Notes under the pieces: model-generated
What the model was told of the DNA's origin: nothing
Seen by the model: only the letters and a program-made list of their open reading frames with translations
The model's database searches: none
Shown: positions 7,798-29,397 of the stretch, piece after piece
How positions within the stretch are numbered: position 1 is the stretch's first letter
How the letters are laid out: every line of letters begins with the position of its first letter
NCBI GenBank assembly: GCA_965232895.1
Contig: OZ247430.1
Coordinates: forward strand, 40,934-104,933
Direction: 5' to 3'
Length of the DNA: 64,000 nucleotides
Source: Dehalococcoidia bacterium
GTDB lineage: Bacteria; Chloroflexota; Dehalococcoidia; Lucifugimonadales; UBA3495
Program-made: the position numbers and the translations under genes

Positions 7798-9846
7798 CTA
7801 GGAATCCAGTTGCGCCGCCAACGCGGCGGCCTCGGTGACCGGAAGCTGGCACGCGTAATTTTCGCACACGTAGGCCGTGGGCCGGCCGTCTTGCATCACC
7901 CTCTGCTCCAGCAGCGGGGAGTCCTTCAGCGGCGGGTTCGTCGGATCGGCAACCCCAACCAGCACCTTGTTCGGCAGGAACCGCCGGCTCACCTCATCGA
8001 GCATATCCCCGGTACCGGGATTTTCGATTGGCCCGACGATGACGATTTCCCGGGGCAGCGAGACGTAGAAATCGAGCGCGCCCAGCCAGTGGCCGGTGGC
8101 GGAAGGCGCGCGCCCCAGCATCTGCTGCATCGCCCGGAGCGGGGTCGCTCCCTTTGCCGAATAGTCGTCGTTGCCGGTGACCACGGCCAGCCGGAGCAGA
8201 ACGTCGGCGGCGACTGAACTGCCGCAAGGCTGAGCGTTGTCGAACACGTCGCGGGGCCGGATCACCAGCGTTTCGTGATCGCTGCCAGTGTCGTAGAAGC
8301 CGCCGACAGCGTCATCCCAGAACAGGGCGTTCATGCCGCCGGCTACTGACACGGCCTCCTGGAGCCAGCGGGGTTCCAGCGTGGCCTCGTGCAGGGACAG
8401 CAGTCCGTCGGCCAGGCAGGCGTAGTCCTCGAGGTAGCCATTGAGCTTGGCCTCGCCATTGCGCCAGGTGCGGAGCACGCGACGGTTTGCGTCGCGCATG
8501 TTGCCGAGGAGGAAATCCGCATTCTTGCGCGCGGCGTCCAGGTAATCCTCGCGGCCCAGAGCGGCGCCGGCCTCCGCGAAAGAGCGGAGCATCATGCCGT
8601 TCCACGAGGTGAGGACCTTGTCATCGCGCAGGGGATGGATGCGCTGCTCGCGAACGTCGAGGAGGACGGCCCGGGCGCGAGCGACGGCGGCGAACAGATC
8701 GGACTCGGAGACGCCGCGCTGGCTCGCGTACTCTTCCGGCGGACGGGCAATGTTCAGGATATTGGCGCCTTCGAAGTTGCCGCGCTCGGTGACGCCGTAG
8801 TAGCCCATGACGAGATCGGCATCGTCCCCCAGCAGCGGACGCAGTTCGTCCGGCGTCCACACGAAGAACTTGCCCTCGACGCCCTCGCTGTCGGCGTCCT
8901 GGGCAGAGTAGAACCCTCCCGCCGGATCGGTCATCTCCCGCAGCACGTAGTCGAGGGTCTCCTCGGTGACGCGGCGGTACAGGGGGTTGCCGGTTACCTG
9001 CCAAGCGTGGAGGTACAGGCGGGCGAGCAGGGCGTTGTCGTAGAGCATCTTTTCGAAATGCGGAACGAGCCAGTAGGCGTCGGTGGAATAGCGGTGGAAT
9101 CCGCCACCCACCTGGTCGTATATGCCGCCGTAGGCCATCTTCTGCAGGGTCAGCTCGACCATCTCGAGGGCGCGGGCGTTGAAGCCGTGACGGTTGTAAC
9201 GCAGCAGGAACTCGGGGGTCATGGGCTGGGGAAACTTGGGCGCGTTGCCAAAGCCGCCGTTGAGATGGTCGAACTGGGTGGCGAGCTGGGAGTAGGCGTT
9301 GTGCATCACCTCGGTGGTCAGGGGCGTGAAACCGCGCGGCATCTGCCCGGTGCGCCCCATCTGCTCGGACAGTTGGCGGGTGACGCGGTCGATCTCGCCC
9401 TTGTTGGTGTGGTAGGCCTGGCCGGCGGCGGCCAAAAGGCGAGGAAATCCGGGCATCCCCTGGCGGTCCTCAGGCGGGAAATAGGTGCCGCCGTAGTAGG
9501 GATGGCCCGCGGGAGTGAGGAACACGGTCATGGGCCAGCCGCCGCTGCCGGTCATCATCTGCACCGCCTCCATGTAAACGGCGTCGAGGTCGGGCCGCTC
9601 CTCGCGGTCCACCTTGATGTTGACGAAATGCTCGTTCATCAGGGCGGCGATGTCCTCGTTCTCGAAGGACTCGCGCTCCATGACGTGGCACCAGTGGCAG
9701 GCGGAGTAGCCGATGCTGAGCAGGATGGGCCGGTCCTCGTCCCGGGCGCGGCCGAGGGCCTCCTCACCCCAGGCATACCAGTCCACGGGATTTTCGGCGT
9801 GCTGGAGCAGGTAGGGACTGGTCTCGTTGATCAGGCGATTTGCCAT
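7798..9846 (-). CDS. Thioredoxin-domain protein, YyaL/SPATA20 family
   Basis: [54 protein letters not shown]. Confidence 0.93.
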
Positions 9847-10371: not shown

Positions 10372-13300
10372 CTATCCGAAGAGCCCGCCGGCATTCTCAA
10401 TTACGCCGTCTATCTCCGACATCTGCGTAATGGTCTCGGCGATGGCCGCCGCCATCCGACGGTAGTGCTCCACGTCGGGATAAGTTGACAAGGCGCGCCG
10501 GCGGCGATCTTTCAGCCACTTGTCCATGGGCTGGTAGCCGCCAATGCGGAAATCCCACACCGCCGGCGCAACGCCGGCAAAATATTGGCTGGTGTTGATA
10601 TAAACGCGGCCGTCATCGTCAGCATCACCGGGCGCGTACTTTGGGTAGCCGGCGGCGACCACGTTGTCGCCGGGAACCGGAAAACCCACCAGTGTAGCGC
10701 TCACGCTCTCGGAGCGCAGCAGATGGGCCTCGACCAAGCGGCGGCCCACGCCGGCCATCTCCCGGAACAAACTAGCGTCGCCCGGCGGCGGCACCCGCGG
10801 GAAGTCGGACCGGAGAAACTGGTCGTAGCGTTCCCGGTACGTCGGCGAGTGGAAGACGGCGTAGATGTAGTGGAACACATCCTCCGGGCCAAAGGTTTCC
10901 TGCAAGTTGCCGGGGCCATCGGGGATGAACGTCAATCCGGTGCGCCGTGCCAAGTCGTCGGTGAACCCCGGCGCAAGATTCGCTTCGCGCTCTCCGTCGG
11001 CATAAAGACCCGAGGCAATTTCTTGATCGGTGGGGTAGAGGTACAGCGGAGCAAATTGCATTATGCCTTTGCTGCTGTAAAAAGCGCGGTTATCGACAAT
11101 CTCTTCATACACACCAAAATGAGAATATTCGTCATTCACTGCTACTTGGCGCATAAAAGCCAAGCCAGTATTTCCGTCTGCTAGTATATGTTGCATTACA
11201 TTTCGGCGGCGTCTGGTGATGAACGAGTCACTGTAATAGGTGTACCTGATGTCAAACGGGCGGTACAGGATCGGAACCACCAAATTCTCGTCCATGTTTT
11301 CATCTGCTGGGAACTCAAAATCACGCGCCGTGTGACTCATTTCATCTGCTGACCAGCGGATGGCCACCTTATCTTGTCCGGTCACAATGCCCGCCGAGTT
11401 CACGGGCATAATATCGGTAATTTTCCGCCATTGCGCGTATTCAGTTTCAAGTTTCTTGTCCCAAGGTTTGAATCGGTAATCTGGAGATTCCGGCTCAACG
11501 GTTTGCCAGTCGGTAGTCAGTAAGTCCGATGTGGACAAGCTGGCGTACTTGGCATCACGAGTGCCCCACAAATCGGCGTGCCTCACCTTCGCCGGCCCTA
11601 GCTTGCCTGCTTCTTTAACGAAGATAGCAATAGCGACACCCTGCTGGATGTCAAAAACATTTTCGTCGACGCTGCCGTCGGGGGCGCTTTCCTTCATTCG
11701 AGAATTGCCATGCAGATCCAACAGGTAGATGTCGGTGAAAGTGTCCAGCAGTTGCTGCCGCATCCCCCGAAAAGTCGGGTTGTCCAGATAACCGTGGTTG
11801 GTGATAAACGCCAGGACACCGGCGCCGGTCTGCTGTATCCGCCACTGAGCGAAGCGGATGAACTTTACGTAATCGTCCTGCAGCCATTTGGGATTGCGCT
11901 CACCCAGCGGCTGCCCGTCAACGGTTTTGTAATCGTTGACCAGGTTGGCTATCCAATCCCCTTTGTTGGCGGAATGGCCGGAGTACGGAGGGTTGCCGAT
12001 GACAACCATGATGGGCAGGTCGCGCTTGACTGCGGCGGCAGCGTTGGCCTCGTCGGTGATGGCGCGCAGCGGACCGAACATAGTCTGCGTTTGCTGTTCC
12101 GCCTGCTCCAGCGAGTTGGTCAGGAACACACCCAGACGTTCGTCGGCGCCGAACTCGTAGGCCCAGGTCGCCTGCTGCTCCGACGGCAGATCCTGCGCCG
12201 CCAACTGCATCCCCAGCTTCAGGTGAGCCATAGCGTAGGGAGCCATCAACAGCTCAAAGCCGAACAGCCGGGGCAACAGGTGCTCTTTGACGTACCCGCT
12301 CCACATCCCGGCGTTGCCGGCATTTTTGAAATGGTCCCGGACGTGATCAATCACGGCATAGAGAAATGATCCGGTGCCACAGGCCGGGTCCAGCACCAGG
12401 ACGCGGTGGGACTTGCCGGTGATGGTCTGGCCGCCGCCGTCAAGGTATTCGTAATCGGCGGTAGCGTTATCGGCCAGCCCGTCGGCGCAGCCGAAACGCT
12501 CCTTGAGCAGACGGTCGACGGAGCGCACGATGTAGGAGATCACCGGCTCCGGGGTGTAATACACGCCGCGCCGCTCCCGCAGGGCCGGGTCATAGGCCGC
12601 CAGGAAGGTTTCGTAGAAGTGCATCACCGGGTCCTGGCGGGCGGCGCGGCTTCCGAAATTGGCGAATACGGCGGCCAGGTCGGCGCCGGCCAGCAGTTGC
12701 GTCAGGTCGTCGACGAAAGAGACGAAGGGCTCGGCGTCAAGGTCGGGGCCGGCCATCATCCCAAAAATCCGGCGGATGAAAGGATTGGCGGCAGGGATCA
12801 AATGGGCGGCGTCGTTGCGGCGAAAATCCCCGGCGCCAGCCTGGCCGGCGTGGTTGAGCCGGGCAGCGAAAAGGCCATAGGCCAAAGTTTGCGCGAACAT
12901 GTCAGCAAAAGTGTCCGTGGCCAGGTCGGGAACCAGAGCCGTCCGGGAAGCGTCGTAAAGATCGCGGATGTTGTCCGAGGCTTCACCGTTCTCAAAGGCA
13001 GCCGCCACCACGTCACGGGTGAGATGCGTCAGCCGCGCCATGCGCAGCGCAAGTTCCTCAGAATTGGCGACAGGTTCAGGTGGACGGTCGAGGAAATCGG
13101 CCAGCAGCAACCCTACGTTCTTGACGCCGTCGGGCTCGTCCAGACTAGCCACACCGCGGCATTGGCCGGCTATGTACTGGCGGAACTCGGTGTAGTTGGT
13201 CAGGATAAGGTTGGGAAGCGCGTTGCGATACCGCTTGAATTGCCGGCCGTTGTCGGTGTCGGGACGCGCCCGGGCGCTTTCCCGGTCAATATCAGCCAGG

Positions 13301-13542
13301 GAAACGCCCGTATCCTTGGCTTCTACGTAGCCAAGGATCAGAGGGTTATCCCCAGCGAGAGTAACGACAAAATCAGGGGCGCCGCATTCGATATGCCTGG
13401 GCTCGTTAACCGCAGTCACTTTGCCGTCTGCTTCCAATAACGCCTGCAGGGCGGGCCGGTGGGTATGCTCGGTGGCGTTGCCCAATTCCAGGCTGGCCTG
13501 GAGCGTCTTGCGATAAGTCGTGAAATCATTGGCGGAAGGCAT
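10372..13542 (-). CDS. Single-chain type IIG/IIL restriction-modification enzyme (PD-(D/E)xK nuclease + N6-adenine MTase + TRD, no helicase)
   Basis: N-terminal GAPDF...YVEAK; motif I VLDPACGTGSFL; motif IV GNPPY; GVYYTPEPV; C-terminal YRPFD and IGGYQPMDKWLKDR. Confidence 0.9.
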   Translation of the reverse strand: MPSANDFTTYRKTLQASLELGNATEHTHRPALQALLEADGKVTAVNEPRHIECGAPDFVVTLAGDNPLILGYVEAKDTGVSLADIDRESARARPDTDNGRQFKRYRNALPNLILTNYTEFRQYIAGQCRGVASLDEPDGVKNVGLLLADFLDRPPEPVANSEELALRMARLTHLTRDVVAAAFENGEASDNIRDLYDASRTALVPDLATDTFADMFAQTLAYGLFAARLNHAGQAGAGDFRRNDAAHLIPAANPFIRRIFGMMAGPDLDAEPFVSFVDDLTQLLAGADLAAVFANFGSRAARQDPVMHFYETFLAAYDPALRERRGVYYTPEPVISYIVRSVDRLLKERFGCADGLADNATADYEYLDGGGQTITGKSHRVLVLDPACGTGSFLYAVIDHVRDHFKNAGNAGMWSGYVKEHLLPRLFGFELLMAPYAMAHLKLGMQLAAQDLPSEQQATWAYEFGADERLGVFLTNSLEQAEQQTQTMFGPLRAITDEANAAAAVKRDLPIMVVIGNPPYSGHSANKGDWIANLVNDYKTVDGQPLGERNPKWLQDDYVKFIRFAQWRIQQTGAGVLAFITNHGYLDNPTFRGMRQQLLDTFTDIYLLDLHGNSRMKESAPDGSVDENVFDIQQGVAIAIFVKEAGKLGPAKVRHADLWGTRDAKYASLSTSDLLTTDWQTVEPESPDYRFKPWDKKLETEYAQWRKITDIMPVNSAGIVTGQDKVAIRWSADEMSHTARDFEFPADENMDENLVVPILYRPFDIRYTYYSDSFITRRRRNVMQHILADGNTGLAFMRQVAVNDEYSHFGVYEEIVDNRAFYSSKGIMQFAPLYLYPTDQEIASGLYADGEREANLAPGFTDDLARRTGLTFIPDGPGNLQETFGPEDVFHYIYAVFHSPTYRERYDQFLRSDFPRVPPPGDASLFREMAGVGRRLVEAHLLRSESVSATLVGFPVPGDNVVAAGYPKYAPGDADDDGRVYINTSQYFAGVAPAVWDFRIGGYQPMDKWLKDRRRRALSTYPDVEHYRRMAAAIAETITQMSEIDGVIENAGGLFG

Positions 13543-14006: not shown

Positions 14007-14657
14007 ATGAACAAACCTTTGAAACTGTGGCTGCTGCTTTGTGCGATGGCGGTGTCAGCGCTGCTGGCGATAGCCGCCTGCGCCCCCGCATCCGATGACG
14101 GCGGGAACGGTATGGCCGGCATGGAGATGGGCTCCATGGCCGCGCCTGAAGACAGCGGCAACCTGAAGATCGGGCAAGCCAGCCCGCCTTTCACCATGAT
14201 GCTGGCGAACGGCTCCGAAGTTTCTTCGCATGACCTGGCGACAAGCGGCCGGCCGGCGCATCTGTTCTGGTTCGCCACCTGGTGACCGGAGTGTCGCGCT
14301 GAGTTGCAGACGCTGAACCCCATCGCCAGCGAGTTTCCGGAAATCGACTTCTACGTCGTTGCCTACAATGAACCCGCGGAGGCGATTGCAGCGTATATCG
14401 AAGAGAACGGTTACACCGACCTGATCGCCGCGCAACCCGTCGGAGCCATGCTGTCCGACCTGGAAATCACGCGCCAGATGGCGATGATGGCGGTGAACGC
14501 CGACGGGGTGATCTACCACCGGCAGTTGATGGGCAGCGCGGACCAGTGGTTGCCACAGTTCACCGAGCTGACCGCCGACCCACACGCCGTACCGACCAAA
14601 ACGGAAGTCAAGAAAGAGCAGGACCGGCGGCTGATGGATCTGCAGCTGCCGGCTTGA
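14007..14657 (+). CDS. Lipoprotein TlpA/redoxin-like selenoprotein 1 (UPEC), in-frame UGA at 14283-14285
   Basis: Lipobox LAIAAC; WFATW-TGA-PECRAEL. The frame stays open with redoxin-like sequence to TGA 14657. Candidate SECIS follows the UGA, and selA is in the window. Confidence 0.85.
14296..14313 (+). promoter_or_regulatory. Candidate bacterial SECIS stem-loop of selenoprotein 1
   Basis: GCG-CTG-agttg-CAG-a-CGC starting 10 nt after the UGA; loop 16 nt from the UGA with G second. Confidence 0.7.
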
Positions 14658-14700
14658 TGACAATAGGCTCCGGCGTCGTTGACGCCGCCGAAGGGAAAGA

Positions 14701-15534
14701 ATGAAAAAGGTTGCAAAATACTGGGCGGGCATCGCGGCCGCCACTCTGCTAGCGGTGGGCCTGGTGGGCTGTGCAGCTGAAGAGCCGGCGACGCCTGCCG
14801 AAGTGGTCTCCGCAGTAGCGACGGAAGCTCCGCCGGCCGCGACCCAGCCATCCGCCGGCGAACCTCAAGCAGTGACTGCGACCTCAGCGCCGCCCGCAAC
14901 TTCGGGAACGACGGCGCCCGCGGCCATCACAGCGCCGACGGAAGCAGCGACAGTTTCCGCTCCGCCGTCGCCCACTGATCCCCCGGCGGTGGCAGCGACG
15001 GCGCCGGCCGCCACCGAATCTGCCACAGCATCCGCTGCGCCTACGGATACACCGGTTTCGGCTCCGCCAACTGCCCCAACCACCACCGAGGCCCCGGCCA
15101 TTGACGTCGGAGCCCAGGTTGGGGAAACCCCGCCGGCGTTCGCAATGGATCTGTCCGACGGGTCGCGGATCGAATCGGCCGACATCGTGGGCAGCGGCAA
15201 GCCGGTGTTCATGATGTACTTCGCCACCTGGTGACCAACCTGCCGCGCCGAGTTACGGACGCTCAGCCCATTGGTAGCAGAACACGCAGGACAGGTTGAC
15301 TTTTACCTGGTCGCTTTCAGCGAGAGCGCGGCAACGCTGGACGAATACGTTGCCGATCACGGATACACCGACATGATCTCCACTCAGCCCGTGGGAACCA
15401 TGCTGGCCGATCTGAAAATCGTCAGCCAGTCGTCAATGATCGCGGTGGACGGCGCGGGCGCGATCACCTTCCGCAAGGGTTACGGAGGCCGGGGCGGCGA
15501 CTTCGGCGCGGAGTTCGCCAAGCTGATTCAGTAG
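14701..15534 (+). CDS. Lipoprotein TlpA/redoxin-like selenoprotein 2 (UPTC), in-frame UGA at 15232-15234
   Basis: Lipobox GLVGC, long Ala/Pro/Thr linker, YFATW-TGA-PTCRAEL. The frame continues to TAG 15534, and the protein is a clear paralogue of the upstream gene. Confidence 0.85.
15245..15262 (+). promoter_or_regulatory. Candidate bacterial SECIS stem-loop of selenoprotein 2
   Basis: GCG-CCG-agtta-CGG-a-CGC at the same offset as in gene 1, with a compensatory T-A to C-G pair. Confidence 0.7.
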
Positions 15535-15558
15535 TAACCCAGAGAAGGTACCGTCGCT

Positions 15559-15606
15559 CTTACGCGCAGACGAACTTACGCGCAGACGAACTTACGCGCA
15601 GACGAA
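15559..15606. repeat. 16-bp tandem repeat x3
   Basis: CTTACGCGCAGACGAA three times, exact. Confidence 0.9.
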
Positions 15607-20036: not shown

Positions 20037-21141
20037 ATGGAAGAACTGCGCCACCATCTCGAAGATATGTCCACCAAGTTGGACGCGGTCATGGAGCGTC
20101 TTTGACCTGTCAGCGTGTGCAAACTCCATTGCGGAACTGGAAAAGGAAGCCTCCGCACCTGGGTTCTGGGACGACCCCGCAGCGGCCCAGCGCAAAATGC
20201 AGGAACTCGGGCACCTGCAGCAGTCTGTGGAATTGTGGCACGGTCTGCGGTCTCAAGTGACCGACCTGCTCGAACTCACCACGCTGGCGATTGAAAGCGA
20301 CGACGAAAGCGTGGCCGACGAGCTGTCGGTGGAGACGGCCGCAACCGCCGCCACCCTCGCGAAGGCGGAGATGGAACTCACGTTGTCGGGACCCTATGAC
20401 GGTCGCCCGGCGATTTTGACGATTCACTCCGGCGCCGGGGGCACCGACTCCCACGACTGGGTCGAAATGCTGACGGGGATGTACTCCAGCTGGGCATCCA
20501 TCAGCAATCGGCCGATCCAGGTGCTGAACACTGCGTACGGCGACGAGGCCGGCCTTCGTACCAGCACGCTGGAAATCGGCGGGCAGCACGCTTTCGGCTA
20601 CCTCAATGCTGAGGTGGGCGTGCATCGTCTGGTTCGCATCTCTCCCTTCGACCCGGCGCGGCGGCGGCAGACCTCATTCGCTCGCGTGGAAGTGTTGCCG
20701 GTTGCCGTCGATGACGATACCGAGGTGGAGTTGCGCTCAGACGACCTGAAGATGGACTTCTTCCGCTCCAGCGGACCCGGAGGGCAGAACGTGCAGAAGG
20801 TTGCTTCCGCCGTCAGGCTGACCCACGTGCCGACCGGGATCGTGGTCACATGCCAGACCGAGCGGTCGCAGCACCAGAACCGCGACTACGCGATGAGGAT
20901 CCTGCGGGCCAAGATCCTGGCGCTGCGCGAAGAGGAACGGGCCCAGGAACTGTCGGCGCTTCGCGGGGAGCGGGTCTCGGCCGAATGGGGCAACCAGATA
21001 CGGAGCTACGTCCTGCATCCGTACAAGTCAGTCAAGGACCACCGCACGGACTATCAGATGGGCAACGCGGACGCCGTGCTCGGCGGCGATATCGACGGCT
21101 TTATCGAAGCCTGGCTGGTGAGCCGGCTGGGAGCCGATTAG
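20037..21141 (+). CDS. prfB: Peptide chain release factor 2 with programmed +1 frameshift
   Basis: ATG 20037 after a GGAGG RBS; 22 codons to CTT-TGA-C (20100-20106) with an internal GGAG; the +1 frame gives DLSAC...GFWDD..., SPF and GPGGQ. Confidence 0.95.
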
Positions 21142-27775: not shown

Positions 27776-28014
27776 AGGTCCTGCCCCAACTGTAGTCGAG
27801 CGCACGGTTTGAACGGCGTCTATGATAGCGCATCGGCGGGGTTGCAGGCACCCGGCGCCGCGGCTGCTATCAGCGTAGATTCGCCGGAGAACCCCGTTTG
27901 ACGGCCGTGTTTTCGGGCGCCGACGGGGACAGGCGCGGGTACGGCGGGATGGTAGAATACCAGCCTATACCAAGGTACGCCGCCAGAGTCGGCGCCAATC
28001 AACCCGGGCGACAG

Positions 28015-29397
28015 ATGACAATCGGTTCCGAACTTCGCAACCTCCCCAGCGTCGAGCGCGTGGTGAACGGTGATGCGCTCTCCTGCGCCGTGGCCGCGCA
28101 CGGACGTGAGATGGTGGTGGAACTGACCCGGGAAGTGCTGGACGGAGCCCGGAAGCGCGTATTGTCCGGCGGGGCCGCGCCGGCCGGGGACGAGATCGCC
28201 GAGGCCGTTCTTTCCCTGGTGGCCGAGCTGACCGAGCCGTCGCCTCGCCCGGTTATCAACGCGACCGGGGTCGTCATTCACACCAATCTGGGTCGTGCGC
28301 CTTTGAGCGACGCCGCTCTGGCCGCAGCCGATGCCGTGGCCCGGGGATACTCCGACCTGGAAATCGACCTCGGAACCGGACGACGCGGGTCGCGCCAGGC
28401 ACACCTGCAATCGCTGTTGCAGCGTATCACCGGAGCCGAAGCGGCACTGGCCGTGAACAACAACGCGTCGGCCCTGTTGCTGGGCTTGTCGGCTCTGGCG
28501 TCCGGCCGCGAGGTAATTGTTTCCAGGGGCGAAGCGGTCGAGATTGGCGGTGGGTTCCGCATACCCGACGTCTTGCGGCAAAGCGGTTGCACGCTCGTTG
28601 ACGTGGGAACCACAAACCGGACCTACGCGCGGGACTACGCCGAGGCCATGAGTGAGCAGACCGGAGCCTTTCTCAAAGCTCACGCCAGCAACTTCAGGGT
28701 GGAGGGTTTCACCGCGTTCGTCGCAGAGCGTGACCTCGTGGCGCTGGGCGAGACCTCCGGTGTCCCCGTGTTGCATGACGTCGGGAGCGGAGCGTTGCTG
28801 CCTACCGAGCGGTACGGATTGGCCCACGAGCCAACTCCACAGGAAAGCGTCGCCGCGGGTGTCGGGCTGGTGTTTTTCTCGGGTGACAAGCTGTTGGGCG
28901 GCCCGCAAGCCGGGATCGTAGTCGGCAAACGGGACCTGGTAACACAGTTGGAGCGACATCCGCTGGCGCGGGCGGTCCGGATCGACAAGATGAGCCTCGC
29001 CAGTTTGACGGCAACGTTGGCGCATTATGTGACGGGCGAAGCGGAAACCAGGGTGCCCGTGTGGCGAATGATTTCGGCGACCGCCGATGACGTGCGGTCT
29101 CGGGCGCAACAATGGCGCGCCATCTTGAGCGACAACCTGGTGGAAGCTTGTGTCGAGCCGGCTCGGTCAGCGATCGGAGGCGGGAGCCTGCCCGGCGAAA
29201 CATTGCCGTCGTGGACGCTGACGATCAATGCCCCGCCGGATCGGTCGCCGGAAGCGGTATTATCCGCGCTCCGCGGGCAATCGACCCCGGTGATCGCCAG
29301 GATCGAAGAGGCCGCGGTTCGCCTGGATCCCAGGACCGTGCTGCCGGAGCAGGACGACGCCGTGATTCAGGCCCTCACGGCGGTGATGGCCAGGTAA
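28015..29397 (+). CDS. selA: L-seryl-tRNA(Sec) selenium transferase
   Basis: VINATGVVIHTNLGRAPL, GYSDLEIDL, SRGEAVEIGGGFRIPDV, FSGDKLLGGPQAG. Confidence 0.96.
   Translation: MTIGSELRNLPSVERVVNGDALSCAVAAHGREMVVELTREVLDGARKRVLSGGAAPAGDEIAEAVLSLVAELTEPSPRPVINATGVVIHTNLGRAPLSDAALAAADAVARGYSDLEIDLGTGRRGSRQAHLQSLLQRITGAEAALAVNNNASALLLGLSALASGREVIVSRGEAVEIGGGFRIPDVLRQSGCTLVDVGTTNRTYARDYAEAMSEQTGAFLKAHASNFRVEGFTAFVAERDLVALGETSGVPVLHDVGSGALLPTERYGLAHEPTPQESVAAGVGLVFFSGDKLLGGPQAGIVVGKRDLVTQLERHPLARAVRIDKMSLASLTATLAHYVTGEAETRVPVWRMISATADDVRSRAQQWRAILSDNLVEACVEPARSAIGGGSLPGETLPSWTLTINAPPDRSPEAVLSALRGQSTPVIARIEEAAVRLDPRTVLPEQDDAVIQALTAVMAR

Follow-up and report, generated by a model that had tools for sequence, protein, structure and literature searches.

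A tandem pair of predicted lipoprotein selenocysteine oxidoreductases, one with a probable Sec-Sec tail, in a SAR202 Dehalococcoidia bacterium

The closest described relatives of the genes reported here are the TlpA, ResA, CcmG (DsbE) and Etrx proteins (cd02966; PDB 1su9, 2b1k, 4hqz, 1jfu) and the UxxC selenoproteins, where U is selenocysteine (Sec). UxxC selenoproteins of the peroxiredoxin (Prx)-like, Redoxin and thiol-disulfide-isomerase-like (cd02966) kinds have been listed since the Sargasso Sea and Global Ocean Sampling (GOS) surveys and in a 2026 review (PMC1088965, PMC2398784, PMC13188914), and the TlpA/Redoxin/Prx-like type has been catalogued from 2005 (PMC1088965, PMC13188914). We investigated two adjacent genes, A and B, of a SAR202 Dehalococcoidia bacterium, located in a 64,000-nucleotide stretch of contig OZ247430.1 (the window). 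The best overall explanation, to which we assigned a probability of about 0.7, was that they encode tandem Sec oxidoreductases and that gene A ends in a Sec-Sec tail. UxxC thioredoxin-fold selenoproteins are an already known type. The Sec-Sec tail with a Sec insertion sequence (SECIS) past the stop codon, the loss of the cis-proline (cis-Pro) and the missing DsbD-type partner are unusual together.

The catalogued UxxC families ('thiol-disulfide isomerase-like', cd02966; 'Redoxin family', PF08534; 'Prx-like thiol:disulfide oxidoreductase', PF00578) have the same Pfam/CDD assignment and the same UxxC motif as A and B, and also a SECIS within the coding sequence and a marine metagenomic origin. 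The entries listed there carry one or two Sec each, and none has an adjacent U-U or a C-terminal Sec, unlike gene A; the comparison was made by description, with the exemplars MGB1650493.1, HEU0032618.1 and WP_010940744.1 left out. In the parts of PMC13188914 searched, neither a U-U motif nor a diselenide was mentioned, and no TlpA-like protein had a C-terminal Sec. Literature searches on SAR202/Chloroflexi selenoproteomes and on adjacent Sec-Sec in bacteria gave nothing pertinent. In the case of the TlpA/ResA/CcmG/Etrx proteins, the fold is common to them and A. The F-x-A-T-W-C-P-x-C-R-A-E motif of E. coli CcmG is shared with A and B, and the pneumococcal Etrx lipoproteins are, like A and B, exported, membrane- or lipid-anchored and encoded by paired genes. 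However, A and B have Sec in place of the first Cys, and their cis-Pro loop is replaced by Q-S-[ST]-K or Q-M-A-M. Gene A adds a C-terminal helix and a putative Sec-Sec tail, and a CcdA/DsbD partner was not detected.

Two further systems resemble the end of gene A. The UXX-star proteins (NF041211/NF041212) are a known exception in layout, where Sec is third from the C-terminus and the hairpin must therefore lie past the stop codon, as in gene A. However, UXX-star is an unrelated glutaredoxin-like protein of about 70 residues with a single Sec, whereas gene A would have a second adjacent Sec and an internal Sec. Gene A fitted the UXX-star type by layout only, and it had no UXX-star match in the NCBIfam scan. 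Mammalian thioredoxin reductase (TrxR) has a C-terminal Gly-Cys-Sec-Gly tail. The TrxR tail and the predicted tail of gene A are both flexible and consist of two adjacent chalcogen residues, one further residue (Gly in 20 of the 37 orthologues) and the stop. The cytosolic flavoprotein TrxR has Cys-Sec, and its eukaryotic SECIS lies in the 3' untranslated region, whereas gene A is predicted to encode an exported thioredoxin-fold protein with Sec-Sec and a bacterial hairpin. The likeness is thus taken as an analogy of mechanism only.

Four open reading frame (ORF) fragments were called on the + strand under table 11 (14007-14285, 14304-14657, 14701-15234 and 15271-15534). The frame offsets within each pair were divisible by 3 (14304-14007 = 297; 15271-14701 = 570) and a single TGA separated the fragments, which bore out the initial annotation, where the fragments had been joined in frame. 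When TGA was read as Sec, two joined frames were obtained: A, MNKP...FATW-U-PEC...QLPA-U-U, and B, MKKV...FATW-U-PTC...KLIQ-stop. Genes A and B are intact genes, and the sole interruption of each is the TGA that stands for the U in W-U-P-x-C (Table 1). Long ORFs on the opposite strand (e.g. 14055-14744) were the usual shadow frames in a 63% G+C genome. The lipoprotein signals claimed for both proteins were found, and the genome has genes for Lgt and LspA, so that export and lipidation are predicted. The linker of gene A was short, unlike that of gene B. One part of the initial annotation had to be corrected. It had ended gene A at 14657, but the frame continues as TGA TGA CAA TAG to 14666; the TGA-TGA tail and the hairpin past the stop had been missed.

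Comparative searches were performed to examine the internal TGA codons. A six-frame search covered 60 relatives, with 37 genomes making up the genus. Both paralogues were adjacent, with exactly one internal TGA apiece, in all 37 genus genomes, with an identity of 46-91% for gene A. TGA-bearing homologues were also found in sister genera of the same family, often in tandem, and in most other families of the order. Homologues with Cys were searched for by a profile search of 1.84 billion representative proteins, and full-length W-C-P-x-C members were found (P0005, P0007, P0011-P0016). The contigs of P0007 and P0016 translated to the query under table 11, which meant that these carry true Cys codons (TGC/TGT). 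The TGA of A and B aligned with these codons, as expected if it stands at the first Cys of W-C-x-x-C. The diversity at codon positions 1, 2 and 3 over the first 60 codons after the UGA was 0.29/0.25/0.47 for A and 0.20/0.15/0.43 for B. Third-position diversity was approximately twice that at positions 1 and 2, and it matched the 30 codons before the UGA. Since this pattern was kept after the UGA, the downstream part is under coding selection. Homologues did not end at the TGA; the downstream sequence was conserved as coding instead. The presence of the TGA in 37 independent assemblies excluded a sequencing error.

The machinery for Sec was present in the host genome (4.28 Mb, 96.6% complete), where selA, selB, selC and selD are all encoded. 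The tRNA-Sec (selC) has the anticodon TCA, selB scored 353 bits against a cut-off of 242, and selD scored 371 bits and has one in-frame TGA of its own. Only selA lies within the window. The initial annotation had placed it at 28015; the gene was present and close to that position, but its match (Table 1) lies within an ORF starting at 27898. A word-indexed protein search with gene A returned only two proteins because gene callers stop at the TGA, and a metagenome scan gave only two further loci, which were near-identical. These results indicated that genes A and B are almost certainly real selenoproteins. The earlier proposal of a duplicated pair of anchored, exported Sec thioredoxin-fold proteins was thus supported by the homologues, the coding constraint and the Sec genes.

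We then examined whether a hairpin follows the internal UGAs, using 89 distinct TGA-bearing homologues that were aligned. The consensus was a 10-nucleotide (nt) spacer after the UGA, followed by GCGCYG-AGUUR-CRG-(A)-CGC. This corresponded to a 6-bp stem with one bulge and an AGUUR loop, of which G, U and U were invariant in 89/89 sequences. Pairing was kept in 95.9% of cells, and four of the six pairs showed changes on both sides; these values were reached by none of 500 shuffles. When the 3' partner was slid by 1-3 columns, pairing was only 18-49%. The clearest covarying pair was C-G in 56 sequences and U-A in 33, and it was never broken. On one side the change is silent, in the third base of an Ala codon (GCC/GCU), and on the other it exchanges Arg and Gln (CGG/CAG). 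Distant members added further compensations (GCUCUG...CAGAGC and GCACCG...CGGUUGC). RNAalifold on the 66-column internal alignment gave another, weak structure (-3.39 kcal/mol) with no compensatory pair, and the hairpin named above was preferred, with four of six pairs covarying. Three other TGA-containing genes of this genome (UPYC Prx-like, UPHC ResA-like and CRYU AhpD-like) also had an (A)GUU(G) loop, with the G located 21 nt from the U of the UGA.

The family of A and B was examined with the read-through products. Both passed the Pfam gathering scores for AhpC-TSA and Redoxin, and the alignments crossed the TGA. The nearest solved relative by sequence was E. coli CcmG/DsbE (WATWCPTCRAE against FATWUPECRAE). 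The AlphaFold2 (AF2) model of mature A had a mean predicted local distance difference test (pLDDT) of 81 and a predicted template modelling score (pTM) of 0.77, and it showed a thioredoxin fold to which one helix, residues 174-188, is added. Its best structural matches by Foldseek were ResA, CcmG, the pneumococcal surface lipoproteins Etrx1/2, DsbF and TlpA, with TM-scores up to 0.80. The NCBIfam equivalogs DsbE, ResA, TlpA and StoA were far below cut-off for A and B, the best being 44.5 bits against 123. The cis-Pro of CcmG (GAP144ETFLID) aligned with Met in A (RQMAMMAVN) and with Ser in B (SQSSMIAVD). Q-S-[ST]-K was found at this position in every Sec member and in the close Cys members, with gene A having Q-M-A-M. 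Because the cis-Pro position is replaced while canonical Cys TlpA-like genes of the same order retain G-x-P, A and B belong, as judged from sequence, to a distinct subfamily without cis-Pro that has Sec and Cys members. The initial annotation had suggested a possibly undescribed subfamily. This stood in that no NCBIfam cut-off was reached and the cis-Pro is absent, but not in that the UxxC TlpA/Redoxin/Prx-like type has been catalogued.

The 3' end of gene A was compared among the orthologues. In this genome the TGA at 14655 is followed in frame by a TGA at 14658, CAA and TAG (14664-14666). All 37 orthologues ended with ...D-x-Q-L-P-(A/S), followed by TGA-TGA-codon-stop. The first codon after QLP(A/S) was TGA in 37 orthologues, and so was the second in 37. 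The third codon was Gln (CAA 11, CAG 5), Gly (GGG 8, GGA 7, GGC 5) or, in one case, TAA, and it varied mostly synonymously within a clade, with CAA/CAG in one and GGA/GGC/GGG in the other. The fourth codon was TAG in 28, TAA in 7 and TGA in 2. The terminator of gene B was TAG in 21, TAA in 14 and TGA in 1. Since the fourth codon of gene A varies as the terminator of gene B does, the last stop behaves as a real terminator. It was followed by a variable spacer, with indels that were not multiples of three, and then by a hairpin. The invariant TGA-TGA, the synonymous next codon and the varying final stop thus argue that both terminal TGAs are read as coding. The tail and the C-terminal extension of approximately 50 residues were absent from paralogue B, the order-level homologues and the sister genera; on this comparison they are an innovation of this genus. 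An order-wide search for the tail-plus-hairpin pattern gave matches in this genus only. Four other order-wide pattern matches had TGG instead of a stop as the fourth codon and were unrelated.

RNAalifold found the hairpin past the stop unaided (-11.75 kcal/mol). In this hairpin 99.2% of cells were paired, three of the seven pairs were compensatory and the loop was invariant. The compensatory changes were U-A to C-G, which occurred five times, and C-G to U-A, which occurred twice. Measured from the second UGA, the spacer was 10 nt and the loop G was at +21, exactly as in the internal sites. Measured from the first UGA, the spacer was 13 nt and the loop G was at +24. A UXX-star family 2 gene of the same genome (NF041211, 112 bits against a cut-off of 100) ends with GGY-TGA-GAC-TTC-TAA (U-D-F-stop). 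Its hairpin, CCCGGGGCC-GUG-GGCCCCG, begins past the stop; the spacer is 12 nt long and the G of the loop lies at +23. This layout meant that the genome holds a member of a recognised (seleno)protein family with a post-stop hairpin, and both terminal UGAs of gene A were within the spacing range of the candidate Sec sites of this genome. These results suggested that gene A likely ends as ...QLPA-U-U-Q-stop (14655-14666) with a SECIS at 14671-14687, which would give three Sec in the protein.

Based on the above results, we propose that A and B are an old tandem duplicate that would encode lipid-anchored extracytoplasmic thioredoxin-fold oxidoreductases of the TlpA/ResA/CcmG/Etrx type, in which the attacking residue of CxxC would be Sec in both genes. 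SelB would insert Sec at the in-frame UGA, guided by the short hairpin within the coding sequence. Gene A would have gained its extension of about 50 residues in this genus, including the extra helix and the end ...QLP(A/S)-Sec-Sec-(Gln/Gly). One SECIS lying wholly past the stop codon would serve both adjacent terminal UGAs, where the second UGA would see the 10-nt spacing of the internal sites and the first a spacing like that of UXX-star in the same genome. After lipidation, A and B would be located on the outer face of the cytoplasmic membrane, A near the membrane and B on a long stalk. The UxxC centres would be highly nucleophilic, resist over-oxidation and carry out thiol/selenol-disulfide exchange. 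As a vicinal diselenide/diselenol, the Sec-Sec tail might serve as a second redox centre that is mobile and exchanges electrons with the UxxC of A or B, or with substrates, as the GCUG tail of TrxR does. The outcome would be an oxidation-resistant redox relay on the outer side of the membrane. We infer the relay role of the tail by analogy. The full combination, namely a gene A with three Sec, one post-stop SECIS for both UGAs, a TrxR-like mobile arm and a surface lipoprotein without cis-Pro and without a CcdA/DsbD conduit, was judged slightly better than an even bet.

Several observations weighed against this proposal. The evidence for Sec insertion was genomic and comparative. Single-sequence folds of the 63 nt after the internal UGAs were no better than shuffles (z = -0.16 and -0.69); the internal hairpin was revealed by comparative analysis only. 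The selD hairpin of this genome differed, with its loop near +31 and not in the +21 GUU layout. In the case of the tail, the profile search of representatives gave no Cys-Cys homologue of the terminal TGA-TGA, so that the usual Sec/Cys test is not applicable to it. The tail occurred in one genus only, the covariation came from few events (7 cells, 3 pairs), and the AF2 model had low confidence there (pLDDT approximately 51). The internal-SECIS covariance model (R1) did not match the post-stop hairpin in the window at E<=10. It re-found both training sites with 53 bits each, and it was dominated by conserved codons and too sequence-specific for this miss to weigh for or against the tail. The likeness between the internal and post-stop hairpins was limited to the spacing, the GC-rich stem and the GUU loop. 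The literature searched contained no record of two adjacent UGAs being served by a single bacterial SECIS. Matches to CcdA/DsbD (PF02683, PF13386) were absent from the 96.6%-complete genome, and VKOR (PF07884) and DUF4395 (PF14340) were not detected in it; DsbB was not searched for.

It was considered whether only the internal UGAs encode Sec. The TGA-TGA would then be a tandem terminator. The hairpin, which lies in the 34-nt spacer ahead of gene B, would be SECIS-like and have a regulatory or stabilising role. Its end is separated from the ATG of gene B by 13 nt, and the GAAGGGAAAG ribosome-binding region of this gene follows just downstream of it. The hairpin might be a SelB-binding site that couples translation of gene B to the supply of Sec-tRNA, much as the SECIS-like element ahead of E. 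coli selAB does. The lack of a Cys-Cys tail homologue and the failure of the covariance model on this hairpin were also consistent with such a terminator. However, the terminators of this locus turn over freely, as the counts for both genes showed, whereas the TGA-TGA was invariant in 37/37. The codon after it varied synonymously within each clade, an in-frame stop came next in 37/37, and the indels that are not multiples of three began right after that stop. The spacing of the post-stop hairpin was that of the internal SECIS. We therefore regard a tandem terminator as unlikely, and the Sec-Sec tail was preferred.

Two explanations accept real selenoproteins with another function. In one, Sec, Cys and Met would be ligands for a soft metal, for instance Cu(I) or Hg(II), which the proteins would bind or handle like the Sco-type thioredoxin-fold copper chaperones. 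This would suit the Met at the cis-Pro site, within the invariant R-Q-M-A-M-M-A-V-N of gene A, and the MxM-rich segments past the lipobox in one subclade (GMAGMEMGSM, MSMDSMDMEGM), which are similar to the Met motifs with which periplasmic copper proteins bind Cu(I). Strong binding of soft metals would be expected of a Sec-Sec tail, and no CcdA/DsbD supply of reductant was detected. However, Ser and not Met was found at the cis-Pro position in gene B and most family members, and the Met-rich segment was absent from many orthologues. No copper or mercury genes were adjacent, the conserved neighbours being a thioredoxin-like DUF255 gene and thrS, and the nearest structures were reductases. Metal handling thus appeared rather doubtful. 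In the other, the proteins would be peroxidases like Prx or glutathione peroxidase, in which Sec would be peroxidatic and resolution would fall to the second Cys or the tail. The Pfam AhpC-TSA gathering score was passed, Sec is a typical residue of peroxidases, a search for a DsbD-type partner found none, and the cis-Pro was lost; peroxiredoxins likewise have no cis-Pro. However, the PxxxTxxC motif and the conserved Arg of peroxiredoxins were absent. The motif was F-A-T-W-U-P-x-C, with Ser or Met where Prx has Arg, and the structural neighbours were ResA, CcmG and Etrx, not Prx. A peroxidase was therefore considered improbable, and the oxidoreductase reading was kept. Finally, that the TGAs are real stops (in pseudogenes or four short genes), sequencing errors or part of a reassigned code was hardly credible: gene callers do split the genes and public sets hold the post-TGA fragments as separate proteins (P0004, P0009), but the TGAs were kept in 37 assemblies with downstream coding constraint and in alignment with Cys codons, long ordinary ORFs read normally under table 11, and the window encodes release factor 2 (RF2), so that UGA is an ordinary stop in this organism.

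The surroundings of the locus and the other TGA-containing genes were also examined (Table 1). The only conserved neighbours of genes A and B were a DUF255 thioredoxin-domain protein and thrS. A type ISP restriction-modification (RM) gene with Type_ISP_C and N6_Mtase domains lies between the DUF255 gene and gene A. The RM gene is an insertion confined to this genome, since 17 related genomes have the DUF255 gene directly beside gene A. Between gene B and the convergent thrS, the window contained three exact tandem copies of the 16-nt unit CTTACGCGCAGACGAA, and the orthologous spacers examined in other genomes did not have this repeat. The Rfam scan of the window gave one tRNA and nothing else. 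In the RF2 (prfB) ORF of 314 residues, the Pfam PCRF match covers the profile only from position 28 on; a programmed +1 frameshift is usual for this gene, and the N-terminus is presumably encoded in a different frame. Four more TGA-containing selenoprotein-like genes were observed in the genome (UPYC Prx-like, UPHC ResA-like, CRYU AhpD-like and selD), and the genome seems rich in redox selenoproteins. It also has several exported thioredoxin-fold proteins despite no detected CcdA/DsbD, VKOR or DUF4395. The Cys homologue P0007 adjoins a DUF4395 membrane protein on three contigs, among transposases, and DUF4395 might be a partner of the Cys homologues without cis-Pro in those organisms.

Table 1. 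Features of the gene A/B locus, its surroundings and related genes. Positions are those of the window unless preceded by C1.
Feature	Position	Strand	Remark
DUF255 thioredoxin-domain protein	7798..9846		
Type ISP restriction-modification gene	10372..13542	-	
Gene A, lipoprotein with TlpA/CcmG-like thioredoxin fold	14007..14666	+	Terminator TAG 14664-14666; 219 residues if all three TGAs are Sec (U93, U217, U218)
Gene A signal peptide	14007..14081	+	Lipobox L-A-I-A-A-C25, kept in all orthologues
Gene A Met-rich segment GMAGMEMGSM	14109..14138	+	One subclade of the genus only
Gene A internal Sec codon	14283..14285	+	First position of U-P-E-C
Gene A internal SECIS hairpin GCGCUG-AGUUG-CAG-A-CGC	14296..14313	+	Starts 10 nt after UGA; loop G at +21
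Gene A two adjacent TGA codons, probably Sec-Sec	14655..14660	+	Then Gln 14661-14663 (CAA)
Post-stop hairpin CGGCGUC-GUU-GACGCCG	14671..14687	+	Proposed SECIS for both terminal UGAs
Gene B, paralogous lipoprotein	14701..15537	+	278 residues, U178; terminator TAG 15535-15537
Gene B signal peptide	14701..14772	+	Lipobox L-V-G-C24, kept in all orthologues
Gene B linker, lipid anchor to thioredoxin domain	14773..15105	+	About 110 residues, Ala/Pro/Thr-rich; Pfam matches begin at residue 139
Gene B Sec codon	15232..15234	+	First position of U-P-T-C
Gene B internal SECIS hairpin GCGCCG-AGUUA-CGG-A-CGC	15245..15262	+	
Tandem 16-nt repeat	15559..15606		Three exact copies
RF2 (prfB) ORF	20197..21141	+	
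selA (selenocysteine synthase)	28033..29379	+	542 bits against cut-off 268; only part of the Sec machinery within the window
tRNA-Sec (selC)	C1:341096-341192		
UXX-star family 2 gene	C1:1551294-1551596	+	
selD	C1:2589083-2590003	+	
CRYU AhpD-like gene	C1:3626150-3626722	+	TIGR01926, 136 bits
UPHC ResA-like gene	C1:3887100-3887852	-	cis-Pro retained
UPYC Prx-like gene	C1:3974080-3974598	+	

If the tail is translated, bacterial SelB and SECIS can read two adjacent UGAs from one post-stop hairpin, and the 17-nt hairpin with -U-U-X-stop could be a natural template for C-terminal Sec tags. The tail would also provide a natural vicinal diselenide on an exported protein, which would bear on the use of Sec over Cys in oxidising compartments and on the recycling of extracytoplasmic thioredoxins without DsbD. 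Public annotation fragments genes A and B, and the post-TGA part of A is filed as short proteins (P0004, P0009). This fragmentation makes surface redox proteins of the abundant marine and sponge-associated SAR202 bacteria invisible in databases.

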